Below are positions 9,154 through 38,417 of a DNA stretch of 64,000 bases, in pieces. The DNA is taken from IMG/VR virus record IMGVR_UViG_3300027759_003166, one strand, 5' to 3'. Every line of letters starts with the position of its first letter. Within the stretch, counting starts at the first letter, position 1. The notes below the pieces were generated by a model. That model saw only the letters and a list, made by a program, of their open reading frames with translations. It did no database searches and was not told the DNA's origin. The position numbers were made by a program, and so were the translations under genes. The stretch is from a virus. Lineage: Duplodnaviria; Caudoviricetes.

Positions 9154-9170
9154 TTAAGTTTTTCCTATTA

Positions 9171-9554: not shown

Positions 9555-10069
9555 TTAATTACTTCGTCTTTGGTATATTGAGACCAGTCTGTAAAGGTCT
9601 CACGGGTTAATAAATTGTGTAGGCTATGACACCACACACCGGGGTTTGTCGACTTGAAGTTGTTGTCGTCAAGTTTAATTATAGCATTATAACCTAGTTG
9701 TTGTAAATAGGGCAGTTTCACCGAAATCATTGGAATGAAATTATGATACTCAGCAAATCCAGTTTCTAACAATCCTTCTACACACTTAACATCTACGTCC
9801 AATGTACATTGATAATCTCTGTTAAGGAAATACTTGATCATATTTTCCCAGTCTACCCAACCACGAGCATTGGTGTCATAATTAGGAAAACTTTGATTAG
9901 CACCAAAGTAGATATGCTCGCAGCCGTTGAGTTTGGCAGCAATAGCATCTACATCTTGTACACCAACAACAAACAATGTTCTCTTACCGTATGCAGGAGT
10001 ATGTTCTACTTCCGTACCGTAGAAGAAGTCTGCGTTTTCGTGTCCTTCTCTTTCCATTTTATTCTCCAA
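9551..10069 (-). CDS. hypothetical protein in deazaguanine operon
   Basis: ORF overlapping both neighbours. Confidence 0.7.
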   Translation of the reverse strand: MENKMEREGHENADFFYGTEVEHTPAYGKRTLFVVGVQDVDAIAAKLNGCEHIYFGANQSFPNYDTNARGWVDWENMIKYFLNRDYQCTLDVDVKCVEGLLETGFAEYHNFIPMISVKLPYLQQLGYNAIIKLDDNNFKSTNPGVWCHSLHNLLTRETFTDWSQYTKDEVIK

Positions 10070-12412: not shown

Positions 12413-15085
12413 TTATTCAAAGCTGAATAATGAACCAAAATTATTTGTTTGTGTAGTAGATTCTAGATCCCACTCTAGAACTCCGATAAGATTATCGAGT
12501 TTATTATTAATAATAACAGTTTCCATATCAGCGTGATCAAATGGTAAGTCTTGAAACCATTTAGGTAGTCGTAGTTCGTCAACCGGATATGCCACGCTGG
12601 TATAGCCAAGTGGATTATCTTTTAACTTACAAACAATTACTTTCATACCATCGACAATATTGGTGCTGTATTTGTCACCATTCATACGTTTAAGAGTATT
12701 CCAGTTGATACTAGCACGAACATGTCCGGGCATATTTGCTTTACCTGCCTTACGTTCTTTTTCTTGATATTCAGCAATGTTGTTGGCACGTTTAGGACTA
12801 CCCTTCTCCCATCCAGGTCGTGCTTTAAATTCAGTTCTAAATTCATTAATCATATCAAGAATTTCTTCTTCCTGACTACCATTTAGAACTTTGGTTAGTA
12901 CTTCTTCAAGAAACTTCTGCATGAATTCTGGAGTATCGCTACGTTTCAAATCTAAACCCATGGCTTTAATTTTGCCAGGTTTAGTATCACTGTCATATCT
13001 CTTGCCATCCTTGTCATAGTACAATACAGCATAACGCTTTTTGGTAATAAACAAGCCTTTGATAGCAACAATTTCACGTCCTGCTTTAATAACTTCACCA
13101 CGTGATTTTGGACAGTGGAATGTATCTAACATGAATTGTGGAAATGTAGCATTAACATTATCTGCAATTGTATTGTATAGTTGTATAGCAATATCTTTAT
13201 CCCAAGGTAGTAATTTCTTTTGAATATCAATCTTTAATGTATTGTAGGCAGAGAAGTAACAACTGTCTGTATCACCATATATAATACTTTTACCAACGTG
13301 ATCAAAATCACCTGTAATAACTTCATTAACTTTACCTGCCATATGGCGAGCAATGGCACGACCGGTAAGTGTGGTACTTTGTCCAATACGCTTGTCAAAG
13401 AATCTGCAACCTGGATTCAAAATAGCACCGTACAAACTATTCAAGTTAATCTTCTTAACCAGTTGTCGTTTGTCCCAGTATTCTTCTTCAATCTTATTGC
13501 CGGCATCGATTGCTGCTTTAAGTTTCTTCTGCATGTCTTTACGCTCACTGTACCAGCGAGCCAGCAAGCCGGGAATAATACCTTCTTGCTCATGGGTAAA
13601 GATTGTGCCATTTGCACTGAGCATCCATGGGTTATTACTTTCATATATTAATCTATAAGCCTCGGCACCGCTTAGTATATCATACTCGCCATTTTCCCAA
13701 TCAATGGTAATTTCAAATGCACGATCTTGTCGCATTACTGCTTCGAATTCTAAGCTGCCAAACATACCTTCCCATGCAGCCGCAAAGGATTTTTTATCCA
13801 ATGTTGTTTGTTTATGAATAAATTCATCGGTATTAGTTTGTCGTATTTGTCCAACAATGGTTTCTGGACCCATATTCAATGCACGAATAACACTGGGATA
13901 TAGACTGTTAATGTCCATGCTTCCGATGTAATCATGTAATCCTTTTTTAGGATATGCTACATAAGCACCTGCGGCTTGATTGTTTTCAGTCTCATCACGC
14001 TTGGCACGACTTGGAACAATTAACCCTCTGTGATGTGCTTCATTAACAATTGCTTGTTCTGTTACTGCCACGGCACCCATGGTGGTCTGTAGCAATACAG
14101 TACATTCGTGTGCTAGTGTATTGGCAAGATCTATAAACTTTAGTTTCTTATCTAACTTATCAAGTAGTGCGGTATCTTGTCTATTGTATTCAATGAACTT
14201 GCGGAAGTCTTTATTATAAAGTTGATCCAGTGTACCTTCGTAGACAGTCTTGCTCTCACCTACTTCCATCTCTCCAATGGCATCGAGCCTGTAGGTATGG
14301 CGTTCTTCGTAGGTGTATTTCCTGTACAGTTCGAGACTGTCCAAATGAACGCGACCAATAAGATCATAAGTAACAGCCTGTTTCCCATATTTCTCGTATT
14401 CTCTCTTTTTTGGAAATTGATCCCACAAACAAAATCTGCGTGTATCTTCTTTGCTCAATACCTTAGTGACTCTATTAACAGTATAAGGAATATCAAAACC
14501 TTCACTATTCCAACCGCTTAATACATCAGCATCTTCAATTAATGTTAGAAATGCATCTAACATCTCTGCTTCTGTTTCAAACAACACAGTATTAGGAAAG
14601 TCCTTGACCTGTTCCTTAGCCTGCTCCATGGTTAGAGTCTTGGGTGGAACAGCAAAACATACCAGTGTGTCTAACCATTGTAAGTGAACAGCGATCGCAG
14701 TGATGGGCATAAAAGCATCTTCAGGAGTGCTATAGCCACGTTCCGGATCAAAGTCTACCTCAATGTCAAAAAATGCTACGTGTAATTTTGGTGGATCAAT
14801 GCCGAGATAATGATCTTCCAAACAGCGGAATGCTGGTTTGATATCGCTTTCGTAGAGTCTACGTTCGCCGTGGATGCGTAGTTCTTTTTGAAAGTCCTTG
14901 TTATTTCTACAAGTAACTTTATTTAGATTCTCACCGTAGATTGATTTGTACTTACCCTTTTGATCAGGATAATAAAAGATAAATTTGGCAGGATATTCTT
15001 GATAGATTCTACCCTTCTTTGCATCGCGCTCAACTACCTTAACAATATCTTTGTCGCGATCCCACCATGCGTCAACATATGACAT
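12413..15085 (-). CDS. family B DNA polymerase (T4 gp43-like)
   Basis: Exo FFDIEVD, SGWN, YNRQD; Pol DINSLYPS, KINLNSLYG, YGDTDS, KKRY. Confidence 0.95.
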   Translation of the reverse strand: MSYVDAWWDRDKDIVKVVERDAKKGRIYQEYPAKFIFYYPDQKGKYKSIYGENLNKVTCRNNKDFQKELRIHGERRLYESDIKPAFRCLEDHYLGIDPPKLHVAFFDIEVDFDPERGYSTPEDAFMPITAIAVHLQWLDTLVCFAVPPKTLTMEQAKEQVKDFPNTVLFETEAEMLDAFLTLIEDADVLSGWNSEGFDIPYTVNRVTKVLSKEDTRRFCLWDQFPKKREYEKYGKQAVTYDLIGRVHLDSLELYRKYTYEERHTYRLDAIGEMEVGESKTVYEGTLDQLYNKDFRKFIEYNRQDTALLDKLDKKLKFIDLANTLAHECTVLLQTTMGAVAVTEQAIVNEAHHRGLIVPSRAKRDETENNQAAGAYVAYPKKGLHDYIGSMDINSLYPSVIRALNMGPETIVGQIRQTNTDEFIHKQTTLDKKSFAAAWEGMFGSLEFEAVMRQDRAFEITIDWENGEYDILSGAEAYRLIYESNNPWMLSANGTIFTHEQEGIIPGLLARWYSERKDMQKKLKAAIDAGNKIEEEYWDKRQLVKKINLNSLYGAILNPGCRFFDKRIGQSTTLTGRAIARHMAGKVNEVITGDFDHVGKSIIYGDTDSCYFSAYNTLKIDIQKKLLPWDKDIAIQLYNTIADNVNATFPQFMLDTFHCPKSRGEVIKAGREIVAIKGLFITKKRYAVLYYDKDGKRYDSDTKPGKIKAMGLDLKRSDTPEFMQKFLEEVLTKVLNGSQEEEILDMINEFRTEFKARPGWEKGSPKRANNIAEYQEKERKAGKANMPGHVRASINWNTLKRMNGDKYSTNIVDGMKVIVCKLKDNPLGYTSVAYPVDELRLPKWFQDLPFDHADMETVIINNKLDNLIGVLEWDLESTTQTNNFGSLFSFE

Positions 15086-15773: not shown

Positions 15774-16316
15774 TTATAAACGAGCGTCTATAATGTTCCA
15801 ATTGATAATTTTCCAATGATTATTTAGATAACCTTTTTTATCGGCTTGGTAATCCAATGACCAAGCATGTTCCCAAGCATCAATTAAAACAATAATATCT
15901 TTCTTTATAGAATGATTGGGAATTATTTTTATATCACCATTGCTTGATAGATAGCACCAGCCACTTCCTTGAATGGACATAAACGATTTGGTAAATTCTT
16001 CTTTGAAGTTATCAAAAGATTTAAAATGTTGATCAATAAACTCTTTGGATGCACCAATTGGTGTATTTTCTTCATCTGGAATCTGTAGTTGTGGAAAGTA
16101 TATACTATGTAAGTAAGCACCTGCTTCATTAAAGTCTAGATCACCTTCGCCGCTGTTATAGCGATTAACATAGGTTCTGTATAGTTTGCCATAATGATAA
16201 TCTATAGCATCTTCACTTAACACAGGTTCTAATGCATCTCGGGCATAGGATAATTTCACTTGTTCAAGTGTTTTGATCTCTTTGCCTTCTACTACATATT
16301 TTATAAAATTAAACAT
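15774..16316 (-). CDS. sod: Fe/Mn superoxide dismutase
   Basis: LEP..S....YHY, AYLH, GSGW, DAWEHA metal-ligand motifs. Confidence 0.85.
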   Translation of the reverse strand: MFNFIKYVVEGKEIKTLEQVKLSYARDALEPVLSEDAIDYHYGKLYRTYVNRYNSGEGDLDFNEAGAYLHSIYFPQLQIPDEENTPIGASKEFIDQHFKSFDNFKEEFTKSFMSIQGSGWCYLSSNGDIKIIPNHSIKKDIIVLIDAWEHAWSLDYQADKKGYLNNHWKIINWNIIDARL

Positions 16317-16906
16317 TATTTCTTTTTACCTGCTTTCATATTAGCGGCCCAATGTGCTAATTGTGCTGCTCGTCCTGAATGACTTTTGGCAAACTTTCTC
16401 AAACTGCTAATACTAGCATGTTTAGGAATACCGTGCCTTGCACTATCACCTTTATCCTCGGGATGACGTCCGTCAGCAAAATTCTCTGCTACATCCTGCT
16501 GACCTTCCACAGTAAGCCTGTCTAATGCTATTGGATTTAATACAACATTCGGTTTCAAGCCTTTGGTGTTAGCATAGGCCACATACACTTGATCTGTGGG
16601 TTCTATAACAAAACTCACACAATGTTTACCGGGCCAGTCTGGTTTGCCCACACTAAACCAAATGCCTATCACAGGAATAAATGGATGTTCATCTGTGCTC
16701 AACCGACCATATTCCCGTTCGCCTGTGGCGTCACGCCGAGGTTTTAGTCCTCCACTTTTCTTAATTGCTTCTAGCCTATTGGTACAATGATAAACCCTTT
16801 GCCCCACTATGTCTTGTCCAGGAAATAGATTCGTACCAGGAACATTCTTAGGTGGTCTAACTCCCTGGTAGTTGGTAAAGTTTTCAACTAGTTCGTTGAT
16901 ACGCAT
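16316..16906 (-). CDS. putative internal head protein: ADP-ribosyltransferase-like domain + basic C-terminal module
   Basis: N-terminus MRINELVE; VYHCT...GGL.P and GIWFS motifs; QQDVAE linker. Confidence 0.5.
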   Translation of the reverse strand: MRINELVENFTNYQGVRPPKNVPGTNLFPGQDIVGQRVYHCTNRLEAIKKSGGLKPRRDATGEREYGRLSTDEHPFIPVIGIWFSVGKPDWPGKHCVSFVIEPTDQVYVAYANTKGLKPNVVLNPIALDRLTVEGQQDVAENFADGRHPEDKGDSARHGIPKHASISSLRKFAKSHSGRAAQLAHWAANMKAGKKK

Positions 16907-17689
16907 TTAGCAATTCCATTTACGTAATGCCAATGCCTTGCGTGTAGGTTCACCATTGGGCTTTTTCATAGGACCATCAACTCCACCCATTCTAGCACAG
17001 AATGATTTACGGCGTTTGGCGGATTTACTGCCAGCTTTTAATTTACTGGGTTTAGTGGTAACTGCCGTTTGTAGTTTGCTACCAGGGTGCTCTCTACGAT
17101 AACTAGCAACACCTTTGGCATTTAGTCCGCCAGACTTGCTTTTGCCGGCCTTACGATGCCACGCAGCAGATTCATTTAATTCATCTTCTAAAAACGTATC
17201 AGCAAACTTTTCGCATAGTGCTCTAATGTCTGAGTTGTTTGTTTCTTGTAGAGTAAATTCTCTTTCTTCGTGTTCGTCGTCACCTTGGCTTGGATCCATA
17301 TAACCGCAATATACTTTACGTATGATAGAATTATTGATTAGATCGGTACAACTATCTCCGTGCCTTTCTTGTGCAGTTTCATCACTAAATTCACTGCAAG
17401 GACTCAGCGTAGTAATAAGAATACTGCCTTCTGGAATGTCACCATATTTTCTATCATAGGCTTCCATGGCTGCTTTCTCTGCATGAACATGTAAATCGCC
17501 TTGCATATAATTCAATCCTAAAACTAAATTATTGTCAGGATCTAATACAGCAGCAGCAACCATGCCGTAACGTTCGCTATCCCTTTTCTGGCCTTCAATA
17601 ACCAGTTTGCAGAGTTTAACCAAGATACCGTCCAACTTGGTTAGATTGCGTATCTCGTAGTCAGTTTGGTCAAACTCTGTAAATCTCAT
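16907..17689 (-). CDS. zinc-dependent nucleotide deaminase domain fused to basic C-terminal module
   Basis: HAE...TLSPC..(insert)..C deaminase signature; ELNE junction; N-terminus MRFTEF. Confidence 0.7.
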   Translation of the reverse strand: MRFTEFDQTDYEIRNLTKLDGILVKLCKLVIEGQKRDSERYGMVAAAVLDPDNNLVLGLNYMQGDLHVHAEKAAMEAYDRKYGDIPEGSILITTLSPCSEFSDETAQERHGDSCTDLINNSIIRKVYCGYMDPSQGDDEHEEREFTLQETNNSDIRALCEKFADTFLEDELNESAAWHRKAGKSKSGGLNAKGVASYRREHPGSKLQTAVTTKPSKLKAGSKSAKRRKSFCARMGGVDGPMKKPNGEPTRKALALRKWNC

Positions 17690-17738
17690 TTCTTTTTCAC
17701 CTTAGGCTGTCTTGCTTTATATAAGGCCGCTGTGGCCA

Positions 17739-18725
17739 TTACTTTTTTTTTTCTGGGGTCTTATTTTTAAATTGGTGATACTTATTTGGATCAGCATTTT
17801 GGAAGTTATCAACCCAAGCATCTAAATCCATAGTAGGTTCCAATTGTCTCTCTACCATTTGCTGTAGTGATTCAAAGTATGGATCACCTTCCGCCACACC
17901 TTGCTTGCGACTTTGGATAACTGTTCCACTTTGTTTTAAATATTTTATTACTTGTTTTCTAATTTGATTTGGATCAGTTAAACCGCCATCTAAACAATTA
18001 TCAACTATTTCAATAGCCAATTGTTGATCCATATCATCAATTAAATTAAATTCTTTTATAAAATGATTTCCCATCTTAATTGCTTCTGGACTATACATTC
18101 CTTCATGATCACCCTCCTCCATACCTTGCTCTTCTTTTCTTTTACCAAATGTAGCATGTACAAGTTGATCTAATTTTGCATGGAAATTAGTTTCAGCATC
18201 TTTGCTAAGTCCTGCATCACCTTCCGCCACACCTTGCTGCTCACCGTTGATACTTTGTAGCACACTATTCAAGTAGTCTGCGGCTTTAGTAATTTTACTT
18301 TGTTGCCAAGCATCAAGTCCTTCTTGTTCGCTATAACGTTGTACCATGTCTAATAATGATTGAGCATTTTTAGCAATGCTCATTAGTTCGCTACTGGCCA
18401 TTTGTATTTCGTGATCAGGATGATCTCTGTCTTCCATAAAAGGTTTTTTATGTTTTTCTTTGCGTGGAATAGTTTTGCTTTTATCTTTGTGAGCACCGGC
18501 ACCTGCCGTTTTGGCATTCTTAGCAACAAAGTTTCTTGGAGTACTTGCTGGAACAGTTTTCTTATCTGCTTCTTGTGCAATTAGATTATTACCACGTTTG
18601 CGTGTACCGCCTATGGGCATACTAACACTGGCTACACTACCTGAACTGGTGCCGCCTCCACTAGCATTTTCTAATACATAACGAGTTACCTCGCCTTGTG
18701 ATAATTTTTTAAATTCGTTGTTCAT
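17739..18725 (-). CDS. modular putative internal head protein with QGVAEG linkers (C-terminus possibly frameshifted)
   Basis: two QGVAEG and one QGMEEG linker; A10 tract at the stop. Confidence 0.65.
   Translation of the reverse strand: MNNEFKKLSQGEVTRYVLENASGGGTSSGSVASVSMPIGGTRKRGNNLIAQEADKKTVPASTPRNFVAKNAKTAGAGAHKDKSKTIPRKEKHKKPFMEDRDHPDHEIQMASSELMSIAKNAQSLLDMVQRYSEQEGLDAWQQSKITKAADYLNSVLQSINGEQQGVAEGDAGLSKDAETNFHAKLDQLVHATFGKRKEEQGMEEGDHEGMYSPEAIKMGNHFIKEFNLIDDMDQQLAIEIVDNCLDGGLTDPNQIRKQVIKYLKQSGTVIQSRKQGVAEGDPYFESLQQMVERQLEPTMDLDAWVDNFQNADPNKYHQFKNKTPEKKK
17883..17905 (-). repeat. QGVAEG linker DNA repeat copy
   Basis: ATCACCTTCCGCCACACCTTGCT, identical to 18216-18238. Confidence 0.85.
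18216..18238 (-). repeat. QGVAEG linker DNA repeat copy
   Basis: 23-bp exact match to 17883-17905; related copies at 18108-18130, 19895-19910, 20066-20081. Confidence 0.85.
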
Positions 18726-19063
18726 TTTGTTTTCATCCAATTTGATACAGGGCTTACTGTATGTGTTCCTTTAGGTTCAAGACTACCTCGTTGAACAATT
18801 ACTTTATTTTTAAAACCCATCTTCTTAGCAGCATTGACAATCATTTCTTCATCGACATCTGAATATGCCCATGCTGCCGGAACATCTTTAGCAGGTCCTT
18901 CTGTAGGTGCATCATGATCTGGCATACCTGCAGACATTATACCTAATCTATAAAAATCGTAGTATTGATCAGCTCCGTGAAATTGTCGCCCGTGTGGTAG
19001 TGTACGTTGTGCCTGTTTATGCAGACCTTTCTTACGTTCTATGATAAACTCAGTTGCTCTCAT
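18722..19063 (-). CDS. putative internal head protein (paralogue A)
   Basis: N-terminus MRATEFIIE; ends VSPVSNWMK. Confidence 0.65.
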   Translation of the reverse strand: MRATEFIIERKKGLHKQAQRTLPHGRQFHGADQYYDFYRLGIMSAGMPDHDAPTEGPAKDVPAAWAYSDVDEEMIVNAAKKMGFKNKVIVQRGSLEPKGTHTVSPVSNWMKTK

Positions 19064-19430
19064 TTTTCATCCAATTTGCTACAGGACTAACGATATTAGT
19101 ATCATCGGGTTCTTTGCTCTTGCTACGCTTGGTTAATTCTTTACTATCTGTAGGAATAGTTGCCATTGCTTGTAATACCATCATATGTTCAATGTCTGTG
19201 TAAGGAAATGCTACATTGTATTTTTCCACAAAACTTGAACTATCCATATCTACTGCTTTTTTATTTGATCCATCTGCCATAGCAGTTGCCATCCAAATTC
19301 TATTCAGATGATAGGTGCGATCATACCCGCCAACATCTCGCATCCTGGTAGCACCTTGGTTGGCATTGTCCATATGATGGTGCATTTTGCCGCCCGGTGT
19401 TGCCTCTGAAATGAATTCTTTTGCTCTCAT
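19050..19430 (-). CDS. putative internal head protein (paralogue B)
   Basis: N-terminus MRAKEFISE (ATG 19430); ends VSPVANWMK. Confidence 0.65.
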   Translation of the reverse strand: MRAKEFISEATPGGKMHHHMDNANQGATRMRDVGGYDRTYHLNRIWMATAMADGSNKKAVDMDSSSFVEKYNVAFPYTDIEHMMVLQAMATIPTDSKELTKRSKSKEPDDTNIVSPVANWMKNESN

Positions 19431-19434
19431 AGTA

Positions 19435-22400
19435 TTATTTATTACTTTTGGATATTGCTTCATTAACAATAATCTTATTGATGAGAGCATCCATAATGTT
19501 TTCAATATCTTCACTTACTGGAATACAAATGTCTTTACCGTTTTTAGTACCAGCATAACGTTTACCTTTCCAGCAGGCCTTACCGTCAACCCCTTTGATC
19601 TTTTCTTCAATGGGTTTGTCATTGTGTTGAACGCTATCACCGCCAACTAAATCTCCAGCCTGAGCAGGTTTGTTTTTCTTAGGTCCAGTATTCTTCCATT
19701 GTCCAGCAGGTCCAAGTTTGTTCTTTTTACTACCTGCAAAGTTACTTGCTGGCATCATCTTTTCGGCAACTTTCTCATCCTTCTTAGGTTCTGGTTTAGG
19801 GATACTACTTGGAGTACGAGCAAGACTTGCGTCGCTCTTAGCACGTTGTTTCTGTTCAGCATTCCATAAACGTTGAGCAGCACTCATACGAGCCTCCGCC
19901 ACACCTTGCTTTGGTTCTGGTAAGCGTAACTTTTTACGCATCTCAGGGCTTGTATCTTTTAAACGTTTCTGTTGTTCTTTATCTTGTTTTGCTTTTGCTT
20001 CTGGACGATTTCTACGCTGTTCTTCACGATCACCGCTTGGTGTACGATTATCCATCTCTGCCAAGCCTTCCGCCACACCTTCGGCCATTTTAACGTGATG
20101 TCTATCCAACTCTTGTTTCAATGCTGCTAATTTGTTTGGAGCACGAGCAATAGCATTACGGATCTCCCCGGCAACGTTCTTTGGAATCTTACTTAATACA
20201 TCATTAACAATCTGATCAACCTGTGCATTCTGTTGTCCTACTGCTGTACTTTTAGGTGGCTTAATAGCTGGCTCATCCTGCTCATCACCTGATGCTTCGA
20301 GATCCATTAAGTATCTTTCGTATTCTGCTTTATTCTGCATCCAACGACGAGCATTTCTTGTCAGTTGTGGAGCATTGATTTGTTCGCCTAACTTGGCCAA
20401 TATTGGAGGTAGATTATTAGAGATGTTGCCAAATGATCTCTTCATTTCTAATTCGCCGTCTGCTTCTTCTCCACGTAAGAAGTCACGTAAATCTACGGTT
20501 CTACGAGTATTGTATTTGCATAGGTCGTGTAGTTCATTGTGTAGTCTACCTATGTACATATTTTGCACCCAACGGCCACCAACCCCTGCTGCTACCATTC
20601 TAAAGCCACGACCTAGTTCGCCATGATTCTCCATATACTTCTTAGCCTGGAATTTCATTGTTTCATAGACATTGGTAATAGGTTCTCCGATGTCGTTGAT
20701 AATGGATCGTAGTGTGCTGTCAATACTGGTACCTTCTACTAGGGCATTTAATATTCTTTGTTCTGCTATAGGAGCAGGTTCTGGTTGTGGCACAGGTGCC
20801 TTTGGTTGTTGTATTCCCATACCTTCCCTTGTTAAATCCATTAGGTGTTTAATCCAATTAACACCTAATTTTTGTACATCAAATCCTTGGCTCCAAACGG
20901 CTAATTGCTGTTGTTCAGTGGCGTTAGGATCTTTTAATATATTTCGTAGTTTAGTAAAACTCATACCAGTACCACGTGGTGTTATTTCTAAACTTACTTT
21001 AACATGTTCATAGCCTGGAAATTTATTAACACCCTTCATTAATGCCTGTGGCATAGTAAGACCTGCTTGATCTTCACCAACCATAATAATAACATTATCA
21101 TAGCGCGGCGGCTTGCCTGGTAGTGGATTAATTAATTCGTGCTTGATCTTTTGTAGTAATGATCCACCTGCTTCATTCACGGTACTAATATTCTTAGCAT
21201 ATTCTGGATATAGTTTGTGCCAAGTTTGTACTTTAACTGCCGGTGGTATTGGATCATCTTTACCCTGTGCATTGCCAATAAACAAATATGGATCCCCACC
21301 TACTGCTGCGGCTTTCTTTAATGTGTAATCAAATAATTGCTCATGACCAATATGTCCAACAAAACTACCAATAGCAACTACCGCTGTCTTAGCATCTCCT
21401 CTTGGACGTTCTGTTCTTGCATTTACCTTAGCAGCATTCTTAGCAGTGATAACATCACGTTGTTCCTGACTGGTAACTTTAATAGGACCTAGGCGACTAT
21501 TGATAACAATACCTTCGTAGTCTTTGCCCAACATATCTTTGCCAATGATGTTAGGGTCATTGATAATTGCTTTCTCTAATGCTGCGGCCACAGGTTCCAA
21601 TGCTGCCTTAACCTGACGTCGGGCTTCTAACTTGTTGCTGGCTAACATGGCTTTTAGTTCATCGATGTTCTCAACAGGTGGAACTAATGCTGTAACATCT
21701 AATGCTTCATTTTGTGTTAGACTATTATCAATAAACATAACACTGCCTGATTGTCCTACGCTGGTTAGCTCTTGAACAATTTTGTTTGAGTTAGGTAAAT
21801 CATCACCTGTGGTAGCATCTGTGATACGGAATGGAACCAATGCAAGTTTAACACCTGCTGGTAATTTGTCGTAGTGTATACCTACAAACTTTAGTTTACC
21901 TTCTGGAGTTTCTGTGGCAAATGGTAGATACAATACTTCACAGGTAACTTGTTTATTGACTAAAAATCCAGGTCCTAACTTGCTATCAACTAACTTAACA
22001 GCGTTCATCATTTCCGTAAATAGTTCATCAAATAGTTGAGCACGACCTAATACTTCTGGATCAGTAGTACCTTTCTTTTGATGATATGCTACAAAGCCTG
22101 GTTCGTATCTAGGTTCTGTTCTACTGGTGCCCATGAAAGGCTTACCTTCAGAATTCTTACCAAATCTGCCACCAAATCCGTCTACTTTGACGTTTAAAGG
22201 AATGTTTTGCAGTTTAAAATTGCCGTTTCCGTCGTGAATTTCGTCTAATAAATCTAACAAGTCAGCAGGCTTAAGATCGTGTAAGTGTGGCATACCTTTT
22301 CGGAATTGTGCCTTTACTTGTGCTTCTTCTTTTAATGGTTTAACAGCCTTGTTTTGAAATGCAGCAGCATAAGTAGTAGCCATTTCAATTGCTTGTTTTC

Positions 22401-23544
22401 TTAAACTAGCAGCATTGGCTAACTTCATATTTTCCAACATCCAATCTATGGCAGCAAATTTAATATCGCGGTCTCTTGCCGGATCATTTTTGGTGATCAT
22501 TTGACTACCTGGTTCAAAACATATACTAAAGAAACGTTGTGCTATTTCTTCTTTCTTTTGTTCGTTGAGATATTTGGCAATCAGTTGTACTGTACCGACA
22601 AAACTATTTTTAAGTTCTTGATCATTGCCTTTGGGTTTTCTACCAAAGAAGATTTCAAATTGTTGACCAAGATTTTGTATGTATTGTCTTGCACTAGGTT
22701 CAAGCAATTGCATTACAGGAATGCCATCCTTTTCCATAGGTTGCCCAGTAGCAGGATCCATGTAAGGAACATATTTCTGACTTACACCACCACCGCTTGG
22801 ACCGCTAACAGCAAAACTATAATCACTATCAGTTACAGGTGCATCAGATATCTTTGTACTTTTCTTTAATACACGAGCAACATATTTGGTACTGGCCTGA
22901 GAATAGGGTAATGCACGATCTAAAAATTTGTGGAATACACCTTTAATGTTTTGAGATATGTCATCCCAAGAACTGCTATGACTATATGATTGCCACTCTG
23001 TGGGTAATCCTGTTTCGGCTTCATGTGCTCCGTATTCAAAGTCAATTTGAATCTTAACAGGTAAATCTTTTAATTTGATCTCCCATAGGCTAACCCATTG
23101 ACTATTACCTGGAGTAAATCCCAACAACATGGCGTTGCTGAACATTTTACCTGTGTTATTTTGTAAGAATTGTCTAATTGTTTCAGCATGTTTGTCAGTT
23201 GCTTGTGTATCAATATCGCCTACCTTGGGTTTGACTCGGACAAATTCTTCATCAGATATTTTCTTATCCATGAATTGTAAAGTACTGCCGCTTAGAAACT
23301 TTTGAGTCTCTACAGAATTCTCATGCCAAAGCGGTTCTTTGAATTGCTGAGTAAATGCATCATTAATTGAATGTAGTGTTTGACTTACTACATCTTGTAC
23401 ATAACTACGGTCATGAACATGTAGATCTAATTCTTGTGCTTGATGATCACCTGGTACCCCTTGCCACCCTGGACTTTGGCTAGATACATTGCCACCTTCG
23501 GATAATGCTAGTTTAGGATTTCTAAATAGTTCAGATAAGTTCAC
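19435..23544 (-). CDS. 1369-aa multidomain protein: Pol-beta-like NTase + KxDG ligase-like + HIGH cytidylyltransferase-like domains + small modules
   Basis: SGS...GDID (23209-23220), VKVDG (22177-22188)...EGIV, GHIGH (21343-21354); GVAE linkers. Confidence 0.6.
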   Translation of the reverse strand: MNLSELFRNPKLALSEGGNVSSQSPGWQGVPGDHQAQELDLHVHDRSYVQDVVSQTLHSINDAFTQQFKEPLWHENSVETQKFLSGSTLQFMDKKISDEEFVRVKPKVGDIDTQATDKHAETIRQFLQNNTGKMFSNAMLLGFTPGNSQWVSLWEIKLKDLPVKIQIDFEYGAHEAETGLPTEWQSYSHSSSWDDISQNIKGVFHKFLDRALPYSQASTKYVARVLKKSTKISDAPVTDSDYSFAVSGPSGGGVSQKYVPYMDPATGQPMEKDGIPVMQLLEPSARQYIQNLGQQFEIFFGRKPKGNDQELKNSFVGTVQLIAKYLNEQKKEEIAQRFFSICFEPGSQMITKNDPARDRDIKFAAIDWMLENMKLANAASLRKQAIEMATTYAAAFQNKAVKPLKEEAQVKAQFRKGMPHLHDLKPADLLDLLDEIHDGNGNFKLQNIPLNVKVDGFGGRFGKNSEGKPFMGTSRTEPRYEPGFVAYHQKKGTTDPEVLGRAQLFDELFTEMMNAVKLVDSKLGPGFLVNKQVTCEVLYLPFATETPEGKLKFVGIHYDKLPAGVKLALVPFRITDATTGDDLPNSNKIVQELTSVGQSGSVMFIDNSLTQNEALDVTALVPPVENIDELKAMLASNKLEARRQVKAALEPVAAALEKAIINDPNIIGKDMLGKDYEGIVINSRLGPIKVTSQEQRDVITAKNAAKVNARTERPRGDAKTAVVAIGSFVGHIGHEQLFDYTLKKAAAVGGDPYLFIGNAQGKDDPIPPAVKVQTWHKLYPEYAKNISTVNEAGGSLLQKIKHELINPLPGKPPRYDNVIIMVGEDQAGLTMPQALMKGVNKFPGYEHVKVSLEITPRGTGMSFTKLRNILKDPNATEQQQLAVWSQGFDVQKLGVNWIKHLMDLTREGMGIQQPKAPVPQPEPAPIAEQRILNALVEGTSIDSTLRSIINDIGEPITNVYETMKFQAKKYMENHGELGRGFRMVAAGVGGRWVQNMYIGRLHNELHDLCKYNTRRTVDLRDFLRGEEADGELEMKRSFGNISNNLPPILAKLGEQINAPQLTRNARRWMQNKAEYERYLMDLEASGDEQDEPAIKPPKSTAVGQQNAQVDQIVNDVLSKIPKNVAGEIRNAIARAPNKLAALKQELDRHHVKMAEGVAEGLAEMDNRTPSGDREEQRRNRPEAKAKQDKEQQKRLKDTSPEMRKKLRLPEPKQGVAEARMSAAQRLWNAEQKQRAKSDASLARTPSSIPKPEPKKDEKVAEKMMPASNFAGSKKNKLGPAGQWKNTGPKKNKPAQAGDLVGGDSVQHNDKPIEEKIKGVDGKACWKGKRYAGTKNGKDICIPVSEDIENIMDALINKIIVNEAISKSNK

Positions 23545-23548
23545 AATA

Positions 23549-23908
23549 TTATCCTAACTTATATTTGTCTTTTTTAATATCTTCACGATAGTGATCATGA
23601 AGTCTATGGCACATATCATCTCTCATTTCTTTTGAAAACTCAGTGCCTAACTTGCCTTTTAATTCGTTATCGTGATAGTATTCTTTACAACCTTTAATTA
23701 CCATAGGCATATACATTTCTAATACTTGCTCAGGTGTACATTCATCTAAACTCTTTAGTTTACGAGCAATAGGATAGAAGTAATCTTTGTGTAGTTTATC
23801 GTGATCAATGATGTACCAAAATAATTCGTCGGCACGTTTATCATCGTCGGTGTCTTTGCCACGTTGGCTTATTTGTATAGGCTGATTAAAGAATTCTGTG
23901 AGTTTCAT
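23549..23908 (-). CDS. putative internal head protein
   Basis: N-terminus MKLTEFF; ATAAATA motif 7 nt upstream of ATG. Confidence 0.6.
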   Translation of the reverse strand: MKLTEFFNQPIQISQRGKDTDDDKRADELFWYIIDHDKLHKDYFYPIARKLKSLDECTPEQVLEMYMPMVIKGCKEYYHDNELKGKLGTEFSKEMRDDMCHRLHDHYREDIKKDKYKLG

Positions 23909-23922
23909 AATATGGTATTTAT

Positions 23923-24204
23923 TTAAGTTTGTTCTTCCAGATAATAACTACACCCTGGTATACCGTGTTGGCTATATCTCAAATTCCTCTCCATTGGATA
24001 AGTTCTGCACCCATCAGGCCTTGTTTCGTATATTTTGCATCGGCGAAATTCTTCATCAAAATGCTCGCACCATCGTGTAGTATACTCAACATTACCTGGT
24101 TTATAAACGCGAACTTTACAACATCCTGTATTACATCCGCCAAATGGATCACAAAAACCTTTGACCACAGGATTAATCCAAATAATCTCATTCATTATAC
24201 CCAC
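23923..24204 (-). CDS. YkgJ/CxxCxxCC-family Cys-cluster protein
   Basis: C....C..GCC...C......CKIYETRPDGCRTYP. Confidence 0.75.
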   Translation of the reverse strand: MGIMNEIIWINPVVKGFCDPFGGCNTGCCKVRVYKPGNVEYTTRWCEHFDEEFRRCKIYETRPDGCRTYPMERNLRYSQHGIPGCSYYLEEQT

Positions 24205-27200
24205 GCAAAGTATGTTAAATTAATTGCCGCAGCGTCAACAGCACCACCCCAGTTATGGAATGTTACACTTAATGTATTGGTACTACTTACCCATGCTGCT
24301 GCAACAAATACCCCTGCTGGTAATGTAGTACCAGGTGTAACTACTACTTTATGATTTGTGGTTAATCCTGTTACTGTAACAGTTTGTGTTCCGATAGACT
24401 GTTTTCCAAGGCTTGCAGGATCAATACTAACTTGTCCTGCTTTAATATTAGTTATACCTAAAAGTGAAACTGCTTGTGCCATCAATGTAGCAGTGTTAAG
24501 GCTAACTGTTACAGCACCTGTGGATGTTGTAACAAATATGCCAGTACCTGTGCTTATGCTGGTAACACCATTTATACCATAACTTCCTTGAATACCCTGA
24601 ACACCCTGACTACCGGTTATACCTTGAATACCCTGCGTACCTTGGTTACCAGTATTGCCTGTATTACCAGTGTTGCCTACATTACCTTGAATACCTTGAA
24701 TACCCTGCGTACCTTGGTTACCAGTATTGCCTGTATTACCAGTGTTGCCTGTATTACCTTGTATACCTTGAGTGCCCTGCGATCCGGTAATACCTTGTGC
24801 TCCGGTAATACCTTGTGCTCCGGTAATACCTTGTGCTCCGGTAATACCTTGTGCTCCGGTAATACCCTGCGTACCTTGACTGCCAGTATTGCCCTGATTT
24901 CCTTGGTTACCTTGGTTGCCTTGAATACCTTGACTACCAGCAGTACCTTGTGTACCCTGTATACCTTGTGGTCCTTGCGGTACAGCAGCACTGATTACAA
25001 TTGCACCTGTAGATGTTGATATGTAAATTCCGGATCCAGTAGTAATACTAGTAACACCGGTATTGCTAATTGTTGTACTTCCGCCTAAACTTGGACTTGC
25101 TACACTAACACCAATGCCTGCTCCAGCAGTAAATGTTATTTGACTAAATGCTAGTTTATTATTGGCAATACTGCCAGCCAACATATTGTTAGAGACTGTG
25201 CCAGTATCTGTGGTATAAACACCATTGGTCACTGTTGTTGCTAATGCTACTGCACCTGAAATCTTACTACCTGCCAACGAACCAATCCATGTAGGATTTG
25301 TATAAGTTTGATTAGCATAAACACCGTTGGTTACACTACCAGCATTACCAGATACAGTGCCAGTAACATTGCCAACCACATCACCAGTCAATGGTCCAAA
25401 GAAACCAGCACTAGTTACCGTATTAGCAACATTTAATCCATTAGCAGTAATAGTTGCTTCAATGTTTCCTGCCAGTGTTCCATTGGTGAAAAACACTATT
25501 CTATCTTCAGTAGTACCTATGGCTAGATTACCATCTTGTACAAATAGATATCCATCGTTGGCACCATTTACCTTCCAAGTGGATGTATTATAGTTACTAC
25601 CATTAATACCCATATCGATATAATAACTACCATCGTCGCCTATGTCATTGACTGCTACAAAATCAGATGATGATTGTGTTCCAGCGTTATGGTTAATGTT
25701 TACTACTTGCCCATAACTATTTAAATCATTATCAACTTGTAAAAGTGCGCCAGGGTAGAGATTATCTTCATTTAAAATACCAAACTTACCACCAGCAATA
25801 ACTCTTAAATTAGTTAATGTACTATAGGTAGCAATTAATTGTTGTGTGTTAATACCACTGCCATCAAAATCCCAATATTGTTTGGATCTATTCCATAGTA
25901 TAGAAGCAGCAAGATTAGTGCCTGTTCCTAATTGTATACCACCGCCATCAAGTTGTGATATATTAGATGCAGTTGTTCCTAATATGAGTATTGACCCTTC
26001 GACTGTATTTGGAATTAAATTAGTAAGATCACCAGTATAATTTAACGTACCATTGATATTAACATCGTTGAATGTAACATTACTTGAGGGAGCAAGGTCT
26101 TGTGGCAAACTTAATGTGATACTACCATTAGTTGATGCAGTTGCTCCGTTAACATTGATTTGATTTGCCGTACCTGCTAAGGATAAAACACCAGTACTAT
26201 CTAAACTGATAGAGTTGGCTAATCCACCACCGCTTAGACCGACACCGGCTATGACCTCAACTACGGCTACAGTGTCTAAATTATTAATCAAACTAACATC
26301 TACTGTACCAGTAAATGCTGTAGTTTGTCTTGAACGATCATAGAATGTAATACCACCATTAACATTACCATCAAAGTCTATACCTCGATCGTTGAATATA
26401 GTACTGGTTGTGATAACATTAGAACCATTGGGGGTAGTTTGTATTACTACCTGTGTGCCAGCAGTAGTATTGGTAAAGTCTTGTGTAGCCTCAACAGTAA
26501 TACGACCAATGCTTTGCACATATTGATTATCACCGTATCCTTGTGTAGAGAATCTAAGTAGGATGTCTTTGTTTTTAACGGCAGTAGGTGCTTGGACCGT
26601 TCCTCTTGCTGCACGACCTGCGATAACAGGGTAAGCACCAGTACCAAATGCATCAACACTAATCCGAGTTGCAATTCCATTCTGTCCTGTAATCTGCAAC
26701 ATTGTACCAGTAAAGTTGCGAGGTTGTTGGATACCCGCGGCATTACCAATAATGCTAAGTGCTGACTCTGATATAGAAATATTTTGTTTTGGAAATACGG
26801 TAACTAATCCCTCACGTGTAATTTCAAATACTTTATAACCATTAACATCATTCATCTTCACAGGGCGATTAAAATTAACATATCCTGTAGCAGTTGTACT
26901 ACCAACAATAATATCTCTGGCGTTATCAGCAATTATAATTTGGTTATCCTGAAATGTAAATTCACCGACCTTTAGCCCAGCAGATCCTATAATAGTAAGT
27001 ATATCATTTCTTGCGGTAATACCTACATCGTTGTCTTTAATTTCATCTTTAATAAAGATTGATCCACCGCCTAACCATAGATGTCTCCAACGATTAAGCA
27101 CCGATCCTAAACTTTGAACATTATTTTCTAAGGGTATAAGATCCTTGCCTAGAATAATATTACCATCTTGTCCAGGATTTAAGAACAGACTAGTATCATT

Positions 27201-28452: not shown

Positions 28453-28462
28453 AATAAAGTAT

Positions 28463-29161
28463 TTATGCCGTCATTAAGTTCTCCCGTAGTATGAATTCTT
28501 CTACTCGTTTGACATTTCCGCTGGCAAACAGCCCAATCATAGTCAAAGTTTTCTCATCTTTGACATACATAAACGGATTGTATAACCATCTATGTTTAGA
28601 TTCTAACCACTTTTTAGAATTTTTACTAATGTTTATAGTATCAGGAAACTTAGCAGCCCATTCGGCAAATGCCAATCTACCCTCCATGGACCATGATTCT
28701 TTAAGATATACTTTATACTTGTATCCATCCTTGGGCAATATATCACGCAGAATCTTCTTATGCCCATTATCTAGCATATAATTAAGTTCTTCTTCTGTAG
28801 TAGGGCCAGATATTCTTTCTACCCAAGGTGCAACTGCTTTGTAGATATTCTCCAACAATACAGGATCTTTACAAAAGATATTATAATGCTTACCTTCTAC
28901 ACGAGTTTGTAGCTGATCTTTCAATGCTAGAAACGGCTCTAACCCTGTGGTAAATGCTAATAACTGGGCTTTGTTTTCTTTGCTCAATTTATCATTACTT
29001 TGCCAACGCCATAGAGCAGGAGCCGGTTCACCAAGACAGAAATCTTTAGTTTGATCAACACCGGCCCAGCGTAATCTACTGGCCCCACTGATATAGCATT
29101 CTATCTTGTAGGGCCATTTGTTATAGAATAACTTACTGGATGGTAGCTTCTGTATCTGCAT
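28463..29161 (-). CDS. hypothetical protein (232 aa)
   Basis: ORF overlapping clpA end. Confidence 0.7.
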   Translation of the reverse strand: MQIQKLPSSKLFYNKWPYKIECYISGASRLRWAGVDQTKDFCLGEPAPALWRWQSNDKLSKENKAQLLAFTTGLEPFLALKDQLQTRVEGKHYNIFCKDPVLLENIYKAVAPWVERISGPTTEEELNYMLDNGHKKILRDILPKDGYKYKVYLKESWSMEGRLAFAEWAAKFPDTINISKNSKKWLESKHRWLYNPFMYVKDEKTLTMIGLFASGNVKRVEEFILRENLMTA

Positions 29162-33596: not shown

Positions 33597-33644
33597 GGGT
33601 TGCTCCGTTAAGTGTACTGATATTTATCAATTTTTCACGTAAAA

Positions 33645-38272: not shown

Positions 38273-38417
38273 AGGCTTTCTCTTTATCAAATATTTATCC
38301 ATAACTGGCCGATATACTATGTTAAATTACAGTGGTCCAAAAATGGGTACTTTGAGCTGGTATTTTGAAATAAATTTTAAATATTATTGCAGGTCAATCT
38401 TCACCAAGGAGGTAAAA

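Follow-up and report, generated by a model that had tools for sequence, protein, structure and literature searches.

The internal proteins of phage T4 provide the closest described counterpart of the locus analyzed here. In the T4 record, ipII and ipIII start with MKTYQEFIAE followed by A, ipI starts with MKTFKEF...ITE followed by A, and gp24 starts with MAKINELLRE followed by S. Positions 4, 7, 8, and 10 of the T4 tag matter for targeting and processing, and the gp21 protease cleaves after L/I-x-E (PMC9026906). In phiKZ-like giant phages, a distant gp21 homologue cleaves many proteins of the head interior after Glu, at several sites in each (PMC9026906). Polyvalent proteins of phages and conjugative elements are multi-enzyme polypeptides that are presumed to be packaged, delivered with the DNA, and proteolysed (Iyer et al. 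2017, PMC5512222).

The stretch of DNA that we analyzed (64 kb, hereafter the window) comes from an uncultured jumbo phage that belongs to the T4 superfamily and is related to Atu_ph07 and Phosso. The open reading frame (ORF) listing places eight consecutive minus-strand genes at 15774-23908, matching the coordinates of a preliminary description, between a tail-fibre gene and a DNA polymerase gene. The first gene of this array encodes a 119-aa protein (23549-23908; leader MKLTEFF) and is followed by genes for a 1369-aa polyprotein (19435-23544; GTG start; MNLSELF...ALSE), a 126-aa protein (19050-19430, with its ATG at 19430; leader MRAKEFISE, then A), and a 113-aa protein (18722-19063; leader MRATEFIIE, then R). 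Next come a 328-aa mosaic protein (17739-18725; MNNEFKKL...RYVLE, then N), which is called as an ORF at 17739-18740 but probably starts at the ATG at 18725, a 260-aa deaminase with a DUF6321 module (16907-17689; MRFTEF), a 196-aa protein (16316-16906; MRINELVE), and a 180-aa superoxide dismutase (SOD; 15774-16316; MFNFIKYVVE). The gene starts are conserved in related IMG/VR contigs. The 119-aa gene is kept as the first array gene in relatives L003-L010 and the SOD gene as the last in L007 and L010. Close relatives differ strongly in their cargo set, and clustered genes that vary between relatives are a feature shared with the T4 internal proteins, as are small basic products, represented in relatives by a leader joined to a basic module.

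As the preliminary description had stated, six of the eight block genes begin M-[RKN]-x-x-E-[FL]. Judged against a crude gene call of 92 genes in the window, this start is enriched over other gene starts (6/8 block genes versus 1/84 outside; Fisher one-sided p = 2.7e-7). A six-frame scan of the 64 kb for M[RKN]xxE[FL] returned seven ATG-encoded matches, five of which are block gene starts, and the GTG-started polyprotein gene is the sixth block gene with the motif. The MNNEF start of the 328-aa protein is a variant shorter by one residue. The clustering recurs in a 221-kb relative.

Several of these leaders closely resemble T4 sequences. MRATEFIIE-R, MRAKEFISE-A, and MRINELVE-N are similar to the tag of IPII/IPIII and the propeptide of gp24. 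In the SOD leader, MFNFIKYVVE, residues 4 and 7 are aromatic, residue 8 is aliphatic, and residue 10 is Glu. Leaders of homologues include MKTFKQFIIE and ..KTYQQFIAE. Most block leaders terminate in (L/I/V)-x-E, which is the motif cleaved by T4 gp21; the leaders of the deaminase (MRFTEFDQTDYE) and of the 119-aa protein lack a good site beyond the first Glu. The array thus has in common with T4 IPI/IPII/IPIII, and with gp24 and Alt, head proteins processed by gp21, a short N-terminal propeptide, an EF-I-x-E core, and an L/I-x-E end, and Alt is a precedent for enzyme cargo. The two systems also differ: the T4 tag is M-K-T-Y-Q-E-F, whereas the array consensus, M-R-x-x-E-F, is shorter by one residue, and T4 has three small proteins, whereas the predicted cargo of the array is made up of enzymes and of polyproteins built from several modules, with junction sites inside them. 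Because the leaders are very like the T4 head-loading tag, the array enzymes and small basic proteins probably are capsid cargo that is delivered along with the DNA.

The 1369-aa polyprotein provides the most informative boundary. Its leader, MNLSELFRNPKLALSE (23497..23544, minus strand, as for all protein features below), ends in L-S-E immediately before a conserved GGN. Domain 1 (aa 17-406; 22327..23496) is a Pol-beta superfamily nucleotidyltransferase (PHROG 19290, E = 4.6e-30). Its AlphaFold model (pLDDT 96) matches the folds of TUT7 (Z 8.1) and of Pol beta, lambda, and mu (Z 7.1-7.5 over ~180 residues), and the GS, DxD, and D.E columns of the family alignment are invariant. Leaders are present in 98 of the 106 homologues with an intact start; these range from 5 to 24 residues and are otherwise variable, but P3 is L or I in 98/98 and P1 is Glu in 97/98, with P2 free. 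The other eight begin exactly at the boundary, M-GGN. A domain-1 homologue in Xanthomonas phage BUDD is also leaderless, starting M-GGN, in a phage that encodes an S77 protease, so the presence of this protease family does not imply packaging.

The rest of the polyprotein is modular. Domain 2 (aa 407-690; 21475..22326; PHROG 12709, E = 6.3e-5) is a separate gene in BUDD and gave no match in Pfam or PDB sequence searches; its conserved K-V-D-G...R-F-G-K residues, read by eye only, recall covalent nucleotidyltransferases of the ligase or capping type. Its junction P-L-K-E, then E, is kept as (L/V)-x-E in six relatives. Domain 3 (aa 691-928; 20761..21474) is cytidylyl-/adenylyltransferase-like, with HxGH (PHROG 3041 'cytidyltransferase', E = 5.4e-11; a weak FAD_syn match at E = 0.011 falls under the Pfam cut-off), and its BUDD counterpart is a stand-alone gene annotated as an adenylyl/cytidylyltransferase. 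The C-terminal part (aa 929-1369; 19435..20760) comprises a conserved helical region, a variable basic region with modules bounded by GVAE-G and QGVAE-A, and a conserved tail (..PVSEDIENIMDALINKIIVNEA..). An alignment with five relatives places QGVAE at the flanks of module insertions and deletions.

A distant homologue in Campylobacter phage IBB_35 provides virion evidence. This protein, the product of gene 1-56, starts MKLSELMFILE, then GGN, and shows homology to residues 1-375 of the polyprotein (E = 6e-19). Mass spectrometry detected the gene 1-56 product in purified IBB_35 virions at 17% coverage (PMC3322345 Table S2). At the syntenic site of Atu_ph07, a relative whose virion proteome has been determined, the array is absent. 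No head genes lie within the 64-kb window; the 221-kb relative (G001) encodes a full T4 head module that includes a gp21-type S77 protease (E = 2.5e-26, 33% identity to T4 gp21) along with a portal, a gp67/68-like small protein with an MLLNEF start, an acidic core protein, a scaffold, and the major capsid protein. In this capsid protein, L-x-E sites lie shortly before the part that aligns to mature gp23. T4-superfamily membership and, in this relative, the protease and T4 head-gene order are further likenesses to T4.

Pfam and PHROG matches, and for domain 1 the fold match as well, confirm the SOD, deaminase, and nucleotidyltransferase domains of the preliminary description. The SOD is Fe/Mn-type (PF02777, E = 9.7e-23; PF00081, E = 2.5e-11) and carries an N-terminal extension of ~15 residues (MFNFIKYVVE, then G), with profile position 6 aligning to residue 21. 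Chlorovirus PBCV-1 and megavirus, giant viruses of eukaryotes, package a SOD in the virion, presumably for action at the start of infection; these enzymes are of the Cu/Zn type and their packaging is unrelated, whereas the array enzyme is Fe/Mn-type with a T4-like leader. The zinc deaminase domain is of the cytidine/dCMP type (aa 1-173; 17171..17689; acidic, pI 4.4; PF00383, E = 4.7e-9, 36.5 bits with the cut-off at 25).

The conserved N-domain of the 196-aa protein (16484..16882; family alignment A1), which follows the leader MRINELVE-N, was linked weakly to ART-PolyVal by a language model (score 0.80) and had an AlphaFold pLDDT of 56; neither Pfam nor a profile search of the PDB nor structure prediction supported the ART-like domain proposed for it earlier. 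The 328-aa protein, whose versions in relatives span 434-625 aa, combines a Gly/Ser-rich stretch, a basic DUF7230-like motif (E = 5.7e-4, under the cut-off), and two modules bounded by QGVAE-GD. The 126-aa and 113-aa proteins are paralogues with a common leader and a C-terminal ..VSPV(A/S)NWMK, and a 49-nt DNA repeat (family D2) lies at the ends of both genes. The 119-aa protein had no match in Pfam or PHROG.

Internal junctions appear to follow the same pattern as the leaders. The overall density of [LIV]-x-E in the block proteins is close to compositional expectation and the motif is short, so only positional evidence counts. On that evidence, the proposal that h-x-E sites bound the domains holds for ELNE-SAAW, QGVAE-G/A, and PLKE-E, which match module boundaries in comparison with relatives, whereas ALVE is conserved in just four of six relatives. 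The junctions QGVAE-G, E-NFADG, and ELNE-SAAW part acidic enzyme domains from very basic tails. In the 196-aa protein, the basic module NFADG...LRKFAK...HWAANMK (aa 142-196; 16319..16483; pI 10.8) follows a DVAE-N junction. This module occurs on >500 proteins, where its partners are of the deaminase, GNAT, HAD-like, or DUF6321 kind, and in some proteins the leader is joined straight to it. Although the upstream domains are unrelated, the residue before NFADG is E in 113/113 and P3 is V, L, or I in 93/113. In the deaminase protein, the DUF6321 module (aa 174-260; 16910..17170; pI 11.4; PF19846, E = 1.4e-21) follows ELNE-SAAW, and one relative (L010) fuses a leader straight to it (MRANEFIIE-SAAWHRKAG, 96 aa). 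DUF6321 is present in 508 phage records, including small T7-like podophages, which presumably have no gp21-type protease; basic modules are thus not specific to the leader system. The QGVAEGD junction is encoded by a 26-nt repeat (family D1) with its reference copy at 17880..17905 (plus strand) and other copies at 18105-18130, 18213-18238, 19885-19910, and 20059-20084 (69-96% identity).

These modular proteins invite comparison with two other systems. Polyvalent proteins likewise carry several enzyme-like domains per phage polypeptide, and the wider family includes deaminase and GNAT partners. They differ in having an embedded metallopeptidase, where we propose that a prohead protease acts on the array proteins at standard Glu junctions, and the array has an N-terminal T4-type leader; Pfam detected no hallmark polyvalent-protein domain in the array proteins. 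The inner-body/ejection proteins of phiKZ, 201phi2-1, and SPN3US resemble the array in having multiple Glu cuts per protein, which for the array are predicted sites. Their motif is S/A-X-E without a T4-like tag, whereas the array, like T4, has L, I, or V at P3, and phiKZ-like phages are a separate lineage with a virion RNA polymerase.

Upstream sequences hint at late expression. The motif ATAAATA, which resembles the T4 late promoter TATAAATA, lies 7 nt upstream of the 119-aa gene ATG (23916..23922, minus strand) and, in a motif scan, 5 nt upstream of the ATG at 19430 (19436..19442, minus strand). It occurs in nine copies on the gene strand versus one on the opposite strand; besides the two that abut leader genes, copies precede virion structural, tail-fibre, and holin-like genes. 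A ATAAATAATACT-ATG string is kept in relatives, where longer ORF calls translate it as '..INNT-M'.

Other explanations of these patterns deserve consideration. The shared N-termini and junctions could be by-products of cassette duplication and recombination, with conserved 5' gene ends and linkers permitting module shuffling, or of translation-initiation constraints, with no role in targeting or cleavage. The 26-nt repeat, which keeps the junction at the DNA level in five copies, the 49-nt repeat common to gene ends of the paralogous 113-aa and 126-aa genes, and the conserved ATAAATAATACT string that abuts some starts all fit such an origin. However, domain-1 leaders vary in length and sequence around a fixed P3 and P1 and a free P2, which argues for constraint at the peptide level, the Glu boundary before NFADG is kept behind unrelated domains, ATAAATA-preceded genes elsewhere have no leader, and a leader-bearing homologue is present in IBB_35 virions; we therefore regard this explanation as highly improbable. 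We give still less credence to the idea that the leader is a tag for another partner, such as a radical-SAM maturase or the phage's Clp-type AAA+ ATPase or DnaJ. CP220 gp100 does lie directly after a radical-SAM gene, the window has a ClpA/B-like ATPase at 29133-31409, and a neighbouring 272-aa ORF begins like a DnaJ protein. Yet the array adjoins no radical-SAM gene, here or in the IMG/VR relatives, the CP220 enzyme has only generic radical-SAM and 4Fe-4S domains and no SPASM, and such a tag leaves the match to the gp21 motif and T4 tags unexplained.

A more plausible, though still unlikely, alternative accepts packaging and processing but has the proteins act mainly inside the particle rather than as host effectors. 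Basic tails would condense or neutralise DNA, SOD and the relatives' ferritin/Dps-like protein would guard the genome against oxidative damage, and the nucleotidyltransferase modules would work on the phage's own DNA ends or on DNA modification. In line with this, the tails are very basic, a ferritin-like gene adjoins SOD within the array of relatives, members of the domain-1 family have 7-deazaguanine genes nearby in CP220, BUDD, and this window, and the main effect of losing IPIII in T4 is on head assembly (PMC9026906). Set against it, T4 IPI* and Alt are examples of packaged proteins with activity in the host, and the strong variation of the cargo among close relatives is more in keeping with an arms race than with a structural requirement.

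Leader likeness, the nearly invariant (L/I)-x-E boundary, the IBB_35 virion homologue, and the relative's gp21-type protease together support, well if indirectly, the earlier claim of a payload locus with T4-like capsid-targeting propeptides removed after Glu. For the source phage, we infer targeting, cleavage, packaging, and ejection, and any later role, on the model of T4; a function as a host-takeover or anti-defence kit is pure inference. The array genes would probably be transcribed late, and the propeptide M-[RKN]-x-x-E-[FL]..., which in most cases ends with (L/I/V)-x-E, would draw the products into the prohead scaffolding core. A gp21-type (Peptidase S77) prohead protease would then remove the leader by cutting after Glu and would also cut the internal junctions QGVAE-G, DVAE-NFADG, ELNE-SAAW, and PLKE-E of multi-module proteins, freeing acidic enzyme domains from very basic tails of ~55-90 residues that probably sit on the packaged DNA, like the basic T4 internal proteins. 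We consider it likely that this is the internal-protein (ejection-protein) locus of a T4-superfamily jumbo phage, whose enzyme cargo (Fe/Mn SOD, zinc deaminase, Pol-beta-fold nucleotidyltransferase, a domain with ligase-like motifs, and a cytidylyltransferase-like domain) would exit the head with the DNA at infection.

The block at 15774-23908 is filled by eight consecutive genes. In order of transcription, these encode a 119-aa protein (leader MKLTEFF), a 1369-aa protein that we call the large protein (19435-23544, minus strand; GTG start, leader MNLSELFRNPKLALSE-GGN), a 126-aa protein (ATG at 19430; MRAKEFISE), a 113-aa protein (MRATEFIIE), a 328-aa mosaic protein (best start MNNEFKKL...RYVLE at 18725), a deaminase joined to DUF6321 (MRFTEF), a 196-aa protein (MRINELVE), and an Fe/Mn superoxide dismutase (SOD; MFNFIKYVVE). 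The preliminary description had claimed that the motif M-[RKN]-x-x-E-[FL] is concentrated here and had set a motif scan of gene starts across the whole genome and relatives as a check beforehand. Such a scan, run in six frames over the whole window, bears the claim out: 5 of the 7 ATG hits are gene starts in the block and, with the GTG start included, the motif opens 6 of 8 genes inside the block versus 1 of 84 outside, which is beyond chance (p = 2.7e-7). The strict motif's sole other gene start in the window is MRQNEL, which opens an 81-aa protein of unassigned function (42481-42726, minus strand; PHROG 14844).

The tripeptide (L/I/V)-x-E falls within residues 8-19 in six of the eight block proteins; near its start the deaminase protein has no such site, and the 119-aa protein has its sole site there after residue 5 (MKLTE). 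Since the overall density of [LIV]-x-E in block proteins is not above chance, we do not use it as evidence. The leaders themselves are genuine: they cluster in the block and are conserved.

Domain 1 of the large protein provides a family-wide view of the leader boundary, and of the computational tests this is the strongest. A search with the first about 400 residues (PHROG 19290) identified 112 homologues, all of which conserve the GGN at the domain start. Among 106 homologues whose start is intact, 98 have a leader of 5-24 residues ahead of GGN, and 97 of the 98 leaders are unique. The residue just before the predicted cut (P1) is Glu in 97 of the 98 leaders, the residue two positions further back (P3) is Leu (71) or Ile (27) in all 98, and P2 is free. 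Eight homologues, along with the Xanthomonas phage BUDD protein, are leaderless and start M-GGN. An AlphaFold model of domain 1 from GGN onward is highly confident (pLDDT 96), and the leader thus lies outside the fold. Judged from sequence, a leader that is variable and dispensable, with an L/I-x-E end as its sole fixed feature, looks as a gp21-type propeptide would be expected to look (gp21 being the T4 prohead protease, Peptidase S77). In seven homologues (P0171, P0179, P0193, P0195, P0207, P0211 and P0213) the boundary tripeptide is doubled, as M-GGN-(leader)-E-GGN; the pattern suggests insertion of a leader cassette into a gene that lacked one, which would be a footprint of leader acquisition.

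Comparison with T4 (NC_000866) provides a template for these starts. T4 ipII and ipIII start MKTYQEFIAE/A, ipI starts MKTFKEFTSTTTPVSTITE/A and gp24 starts MAKINELLRE/S (a slash marks the predicted cut here and below), and the block leaders resemble this capsid targeting sequence. The gp21 protease cuts after Glu in L/I-X-E, the T4 internal-protein propeptides of 10-19 residues are capsid targeting sequences in which targeting depends on positions 4 and 7 and processing on positions 8 and 10, and T4-related phages encode other basic proteins with similar leaders (PMC9026906). The window leaders share an E-F-I-x-E core with the T4 tag, placed one residue nearer to the Met, and MRINELVE of the 196-aa protein resembles the gp24 propeptide. 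The SOD leader presents F4, Y7, V8 and E10 at the key positions of the T4 tag, and some domain-1 homologues have leaders near-identical to the T4 tag (MKTFKQFIIE, ..KTYQQFIAE).

Virion evidence comes from the CP220-group Campylobacter phages, which are related to T4 and carry an S77 protease. These phages encode a stand-alone domain-1 homologue that starts MKLSELMFILE/GGN. In phage vB_CcoM-IBB_35 the homologue is gene 1-56 (39251-40417; 44.4 kDa). When purified virions were analysed by ESI-MS/MS, its product was one of the 38 proteins found, at 17% coverage (PMC3322345). This detection is the sole direct evidence and concerns a distant homologue.

The corresponding head machinery was read in G001, a 221-kb relative whose large protein is 89% identical to that of the window and whose contig carries a head module; the window itself contains no head genes. 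The G001 head genes are arranged as in T4: portal, an 81-aa protein (start MLLNEF), a 338-aa acidic protein, S77 protease, coiled-coil scaffold and major capsid protein. The protease (L016:9509-10138; PF03420, E = 2.5e-26) shares 33% identity with T4 gp21 and has retained the ..HP.. and GVSSRG stretches; the capsid protein aligns to gp23 from just past the gp23 cleavage region, with CLE/ and LSE/ sites immediately upstream. An S77 protease is present in CP220, BUDD and Agrobacterium phage Atu_ph07 alike, so the leaderless BUDD gene is no test of leader-protease pairing. A complex prediction pairing the G001 protease with a 121-aa cargo protein scored 0.00 and weighs neither way.

Because sequence, boundary behaviour, lineage and one virion proteome agree, we consider it probable that the leaders act as capsid-targeting propeptides of the T4 kind and are removed by a gp21-type protease. 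The preliminary description's proposal of capsid-targeting signals like those of the T4 internal proteins is thereby upheld in part, namely for the likeness itself, the L/I-x-E boundary and the presence of one distant homologue in virions.

Four leader-like gene starts, each preceded by the sequence ATAAATA, were also observed in G001 outside the array (at 8883, 25757, 146079 and 185644). MRIHELIVE opens a 247-aa protein with a weak M78-peptidase match and MQIKELLAE an 83-aa protein; MLLNEFIYF opens the 81-aa protein between the portal and protease genes, at the position that gp67/68 has in T4, and MKTFTQYLSE a 196-aa protein whose start closely resembles that of T4 IPI.

Candidate cut sites also lie at boundaries within the cargo proteins. 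In the 196-aa protein, the C-terminal 55 residues make up a basic module, here called NFADG, that occurs on more than 500 proteins, with upstream partners that include deaminases, GNAT acetyltransferases, HAD-like proteins and DUF6321; several proteins consist of a leader and this module alone. Glu stands just before NFADG in all 113 of 113 occurrences and P3 is V, L or I in 93 of the 113, with unrelated domains upstream. Alignment of the large protein with five relatives reveals a conserved core, C-terminal modules gained or lost between QGVAE/G or QGVAE/A sites, and (L/V)-x-E at the domain 1/2 boundary in all six proteins; the QGVAE junction is also a 26-nt DNA repeat with five copies. Pieces that follow junctions are very basic (pI 10.8 and 11.4), while enzyme pieces are acidic. 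DUF6321, the basic module that follows ELNE/ in the deaminase protein, is found as well in T7-like podophages and, in T4-like cyanophages, in a mosaic basic protein whose gene neighbours gp16 and which one record labels structural; the basic modules thus have a wider currency than this system.

In the cyanophages, DUF6321 forms the end of a large, very basic mosaic protein within a structural gene block (L035:1259-2746 in Synechococcus phage S-SM1; L034:833-2743 in Sf-FS3), and the S-SM1 protein also has a CW..GY module like one near the end of the 1369-aa protein. The extreme C-terminus of the large protein (aa about 1340-1369; window 19438-19530), which reads ..PVSEDIENIMDALINKIIVNEA.. and contains VSE/ and VNE/ sites, persists in the five closer relatives, including those in which the modules ahead of it have been exchanged, and is not conserved in the most distant relative, L012. 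This end may serve as a C-terminal propeptide or as a second targeting helix; in T4, both Alt and gp21 undergo C-terminal processing.

The SOD, deaminase and nucleotidyltransferase domains named in the preliminary description were recovered by the database and structure searches. The SOD, which has an N-terminal extension of about 15 residues, matches PF02777 (80.6 bits) and PF00081 (44.3 bits), both above cut-offs, and by eye the His in DYHYGK and LHSIYF and the Asp and His in DAWEHAW look like putative metal ligands. The deaminase domain matches PF00383 (36.5 bits; cut-off 25), with HAE and PC...C motifs visible. Structural matches to the domain-1 model include TUT7 (Z 8.1) and Pol beta, lambda and mu (Z 7.1-7.5 over about 180 residues), the top Foldseek matches are all to the Pol-beta superfamily, if weak (E about 0.02), and G70-S71, D94 and D96 (DxD), and D152 and E154 (D.E) are invariant. 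On the strength of this model, domain 1 has a Pol-beta superfamily nucleotidyltransferase fold, with no closer family assignable within the superfamily; its viral structural relatives include an Atu_ph07 protein. Domain 3 matches a PHROG annotated as cytidyltransferase. Domain 2 (PHROG 12709) has no Pfam or PDB sequence match and, in the atlas, falls with unnamed viral clusters and DUF6267 only, with no named relatives; a K-V-D-G motif, read by eye, suggests a ligase-like enzyme. BUDD encodes the three enzyme regions without leaders, within a run of four consecutive genes beside DpdA and QueE, and the cargo enzymes are therefore not restricted to capsids.

The PHROG 19290 genes of three unrelated phages lie near 7-deazaguanine or radical-SAM genes (neighbourhoods at window 5904-11618 and 22327-23496, L001:4999-7167 and L002:1-9218). 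The CP220 gene directly follows a radical-SAM gene, the BUDD gene is less than 5 kb from DpdA and QueE, and the window has a deazaguanine cluster near the domain. A link to DNA modification is possible.

The preliminary description had further proposed an ADP-ribosyltransferase (ART)-like domain, a call that we do not retain for the 196-aa protein. Its N-terminal domain belongs to a conserved family of unassigned fold; none of 17 family members had any Pfam match even at E = 5, no PDB profile matched the protein, and its AlphaFold model (pLDDT 56) is too poor for a fold search. The hint came from a language-model lead of 0.80 alone, a score attained by shuffled proteins in a third of cases. 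Polyvalent proteins (Iyer et al., 2017) offer another comparison, as they share with the block the combination of two or more effector-type domains within a single phage polypeptide: a Pol-beta-fold nucleotidyltransferase, PHROG 12709 and a cytidylyltransferase-like domain in the 1369-aa protein, and a deaminase with DUF6321. However, polyvalent hallmark domains, such as ART-PolyVal and the embedded metallopeptidase, had no Pfam match in the eight proteins or their segments. The 113-, 126- and 119-aa proteins have no function assigned.

Three relatives (L007, L009 and L011) have an extra ferritin/Dps-like gene inside the cargo array (L007:15213-15653; PF00210, E = 4.7e-17), with ATAAATA upstream and without a leader. 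Together with the SOD, this gene constitutes an oxidative-stress theme of the locus.

The window DNA polymerase (12413-15085, minus strand) is 51% identical to that of the Sinorhizobium jumbo phage Phosso and 45% identical to that of Atu_ph07, with remoter matches spread over T4-like phages, and nearly all window genes lie on the minus strand. The source is thus an uncultured jumbo phage of the T4 superfamily. Searches yielded no near-identical DNA match to the window among GenBank phages and no match to the 196-aa protein among isolated phages. Relatives of the large protein are encoded at 12 IMG/VR loci (37-99% identity), and in those that span the region the position of the block is constant, with a tail-fibre-like gene on one side and the DNA polymerase gene on the other. 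Block content differs from phage to phage while the leaders persist. For example, a 96-aa gene in L010 consists of a leader and DUF6321 alone (MRANEFIIE/SAAWHRKAG), with DUF6321 starting at the same residue as after ELNE/ in the window deaminase protein, and a 388-aa protein in L011 has the leader MRAHEFEP followed by a DIDDT start, which is found in proteins named HAD phosphatases in source records. Atu_ph07 keeps the flanking genes and has no such array at the syntenic site, so its virion proteome gives no test of the array.

The gene just upstream of the array is likewise highly plastic: the window tail-fibre gene (24195-27989, minus strand), which contains long collagen-like G-x-x repeats, encodes 1264 aa, whereas its counterparts in relatives encode about 90-514 aa. 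Further upstream of the tail-fibre and cargo region lie a ClpA/B-like AAA+ ATPase (29133-31409, minus strand; PHROG 4871, E = 1.5e-251) and, beside it, a 272-aa ORF with a DnaJ J-domain-like start (31921-32739, minus strand). The relatives retain both, and the corresponding position in Atu_ph07 is taken by DnaJ and an ATP-dependent protease; participation in assembly or protein loading is conceivable.

Two block genes and several structural genes are preceded by ATAAATA, which occurs nine times on the gene strand of the window versus once on the other (minus-strand copies include 19436-19442, 23916-23922, 28460-28466, 33621-33627, 38292-38298, 44358-44364 and 47646-47652). One copy ends 5 nt before the ATG of the 126-aa gene and another 7 nt before that of the 119-aa gene; four others precede the tail-fibre gene, two virion-structural genes and a holin-like gene, and in G001 the sequence precedes many structural genes. 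ATAAATA resembles the T4 late promoter, TATAAATA, and we infer that it may act as a late promoter in the window phage. The sequence sits 4-7 nt before many start codons (more than 15 cases in G001), which leaves no room for a Shine-Dalgarno site, and several relatives conserve a ATAAATAATACT-ATG string. In this lineage the mRNAs of late genes may be leaderless or nearly so, or ATAAATA may act in translation rather than transcription.

A broader reading, which we put forward as tentative and on balance doubtful, is that aquatic T4-superfamily phages possess a standardised plug-and-play capsid-loading system and that, in the window phage, its largest cargo is a nucleic-acid end-processing machine. 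Such a system would have three parts: a T4-type leader, prohead-protease junctions (h-x-E/NFADG, QGVAE/G and E/SAAW) and a few very basic DNA-binding tails. Nearly any enzyme domain could then be inserted, packaged, freed by cleavage and injected; those seen with leader or junction modules are deaminase, GNAT, HAD-like, SOD and nucleotidyltransferase domains. The largest cargo in the window phage would combine a Pol-X-like nucleotidyltransferase, a ligase-like domain and a nucleotidylyltransferase into a pre-loaded machine that, at time zero, would target either the incoming genome or host RNA.

The T4 capsid targeting sequence is a classic virus address label that engineers have also exploited to fill phage heads with foreign proteins, and the targeting principle itself is long established for T4. 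To our knowledge, the natural range and cargo of T4-type tags outside T-even phages are poorly charted, and our search of the literature on DUF6321 and on the T4 leader string turned up no paper in which this system is described. New here are the cargo of enzymes and polyproteins and its setting in a jumbo phage, together with the standard junctions and the statistics on the boundary across a whole family. These observations also draw attention to a family of Pol-beta-fold enzymes, as far as we know uncharacterised, for which there is virion evidence in Campylobacter phages. Proteins injected at time zero are a class rich in anti-defence functions. If the capsid-targeting reading is true, a lineage of jumbo phages and hundreds of uncultured phages from aquatic habitats would share the logic of the T4 tag, with real enzymes and polyproteins with standard protease junctions as its cargo. 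New natural leaders and linkers would become available for phage-based protein delivery, and a leader followed by L/I/V-x-E would constitute a simple sequence rule for predicting which phage genes of unknown function encode proteins injected at time zero.
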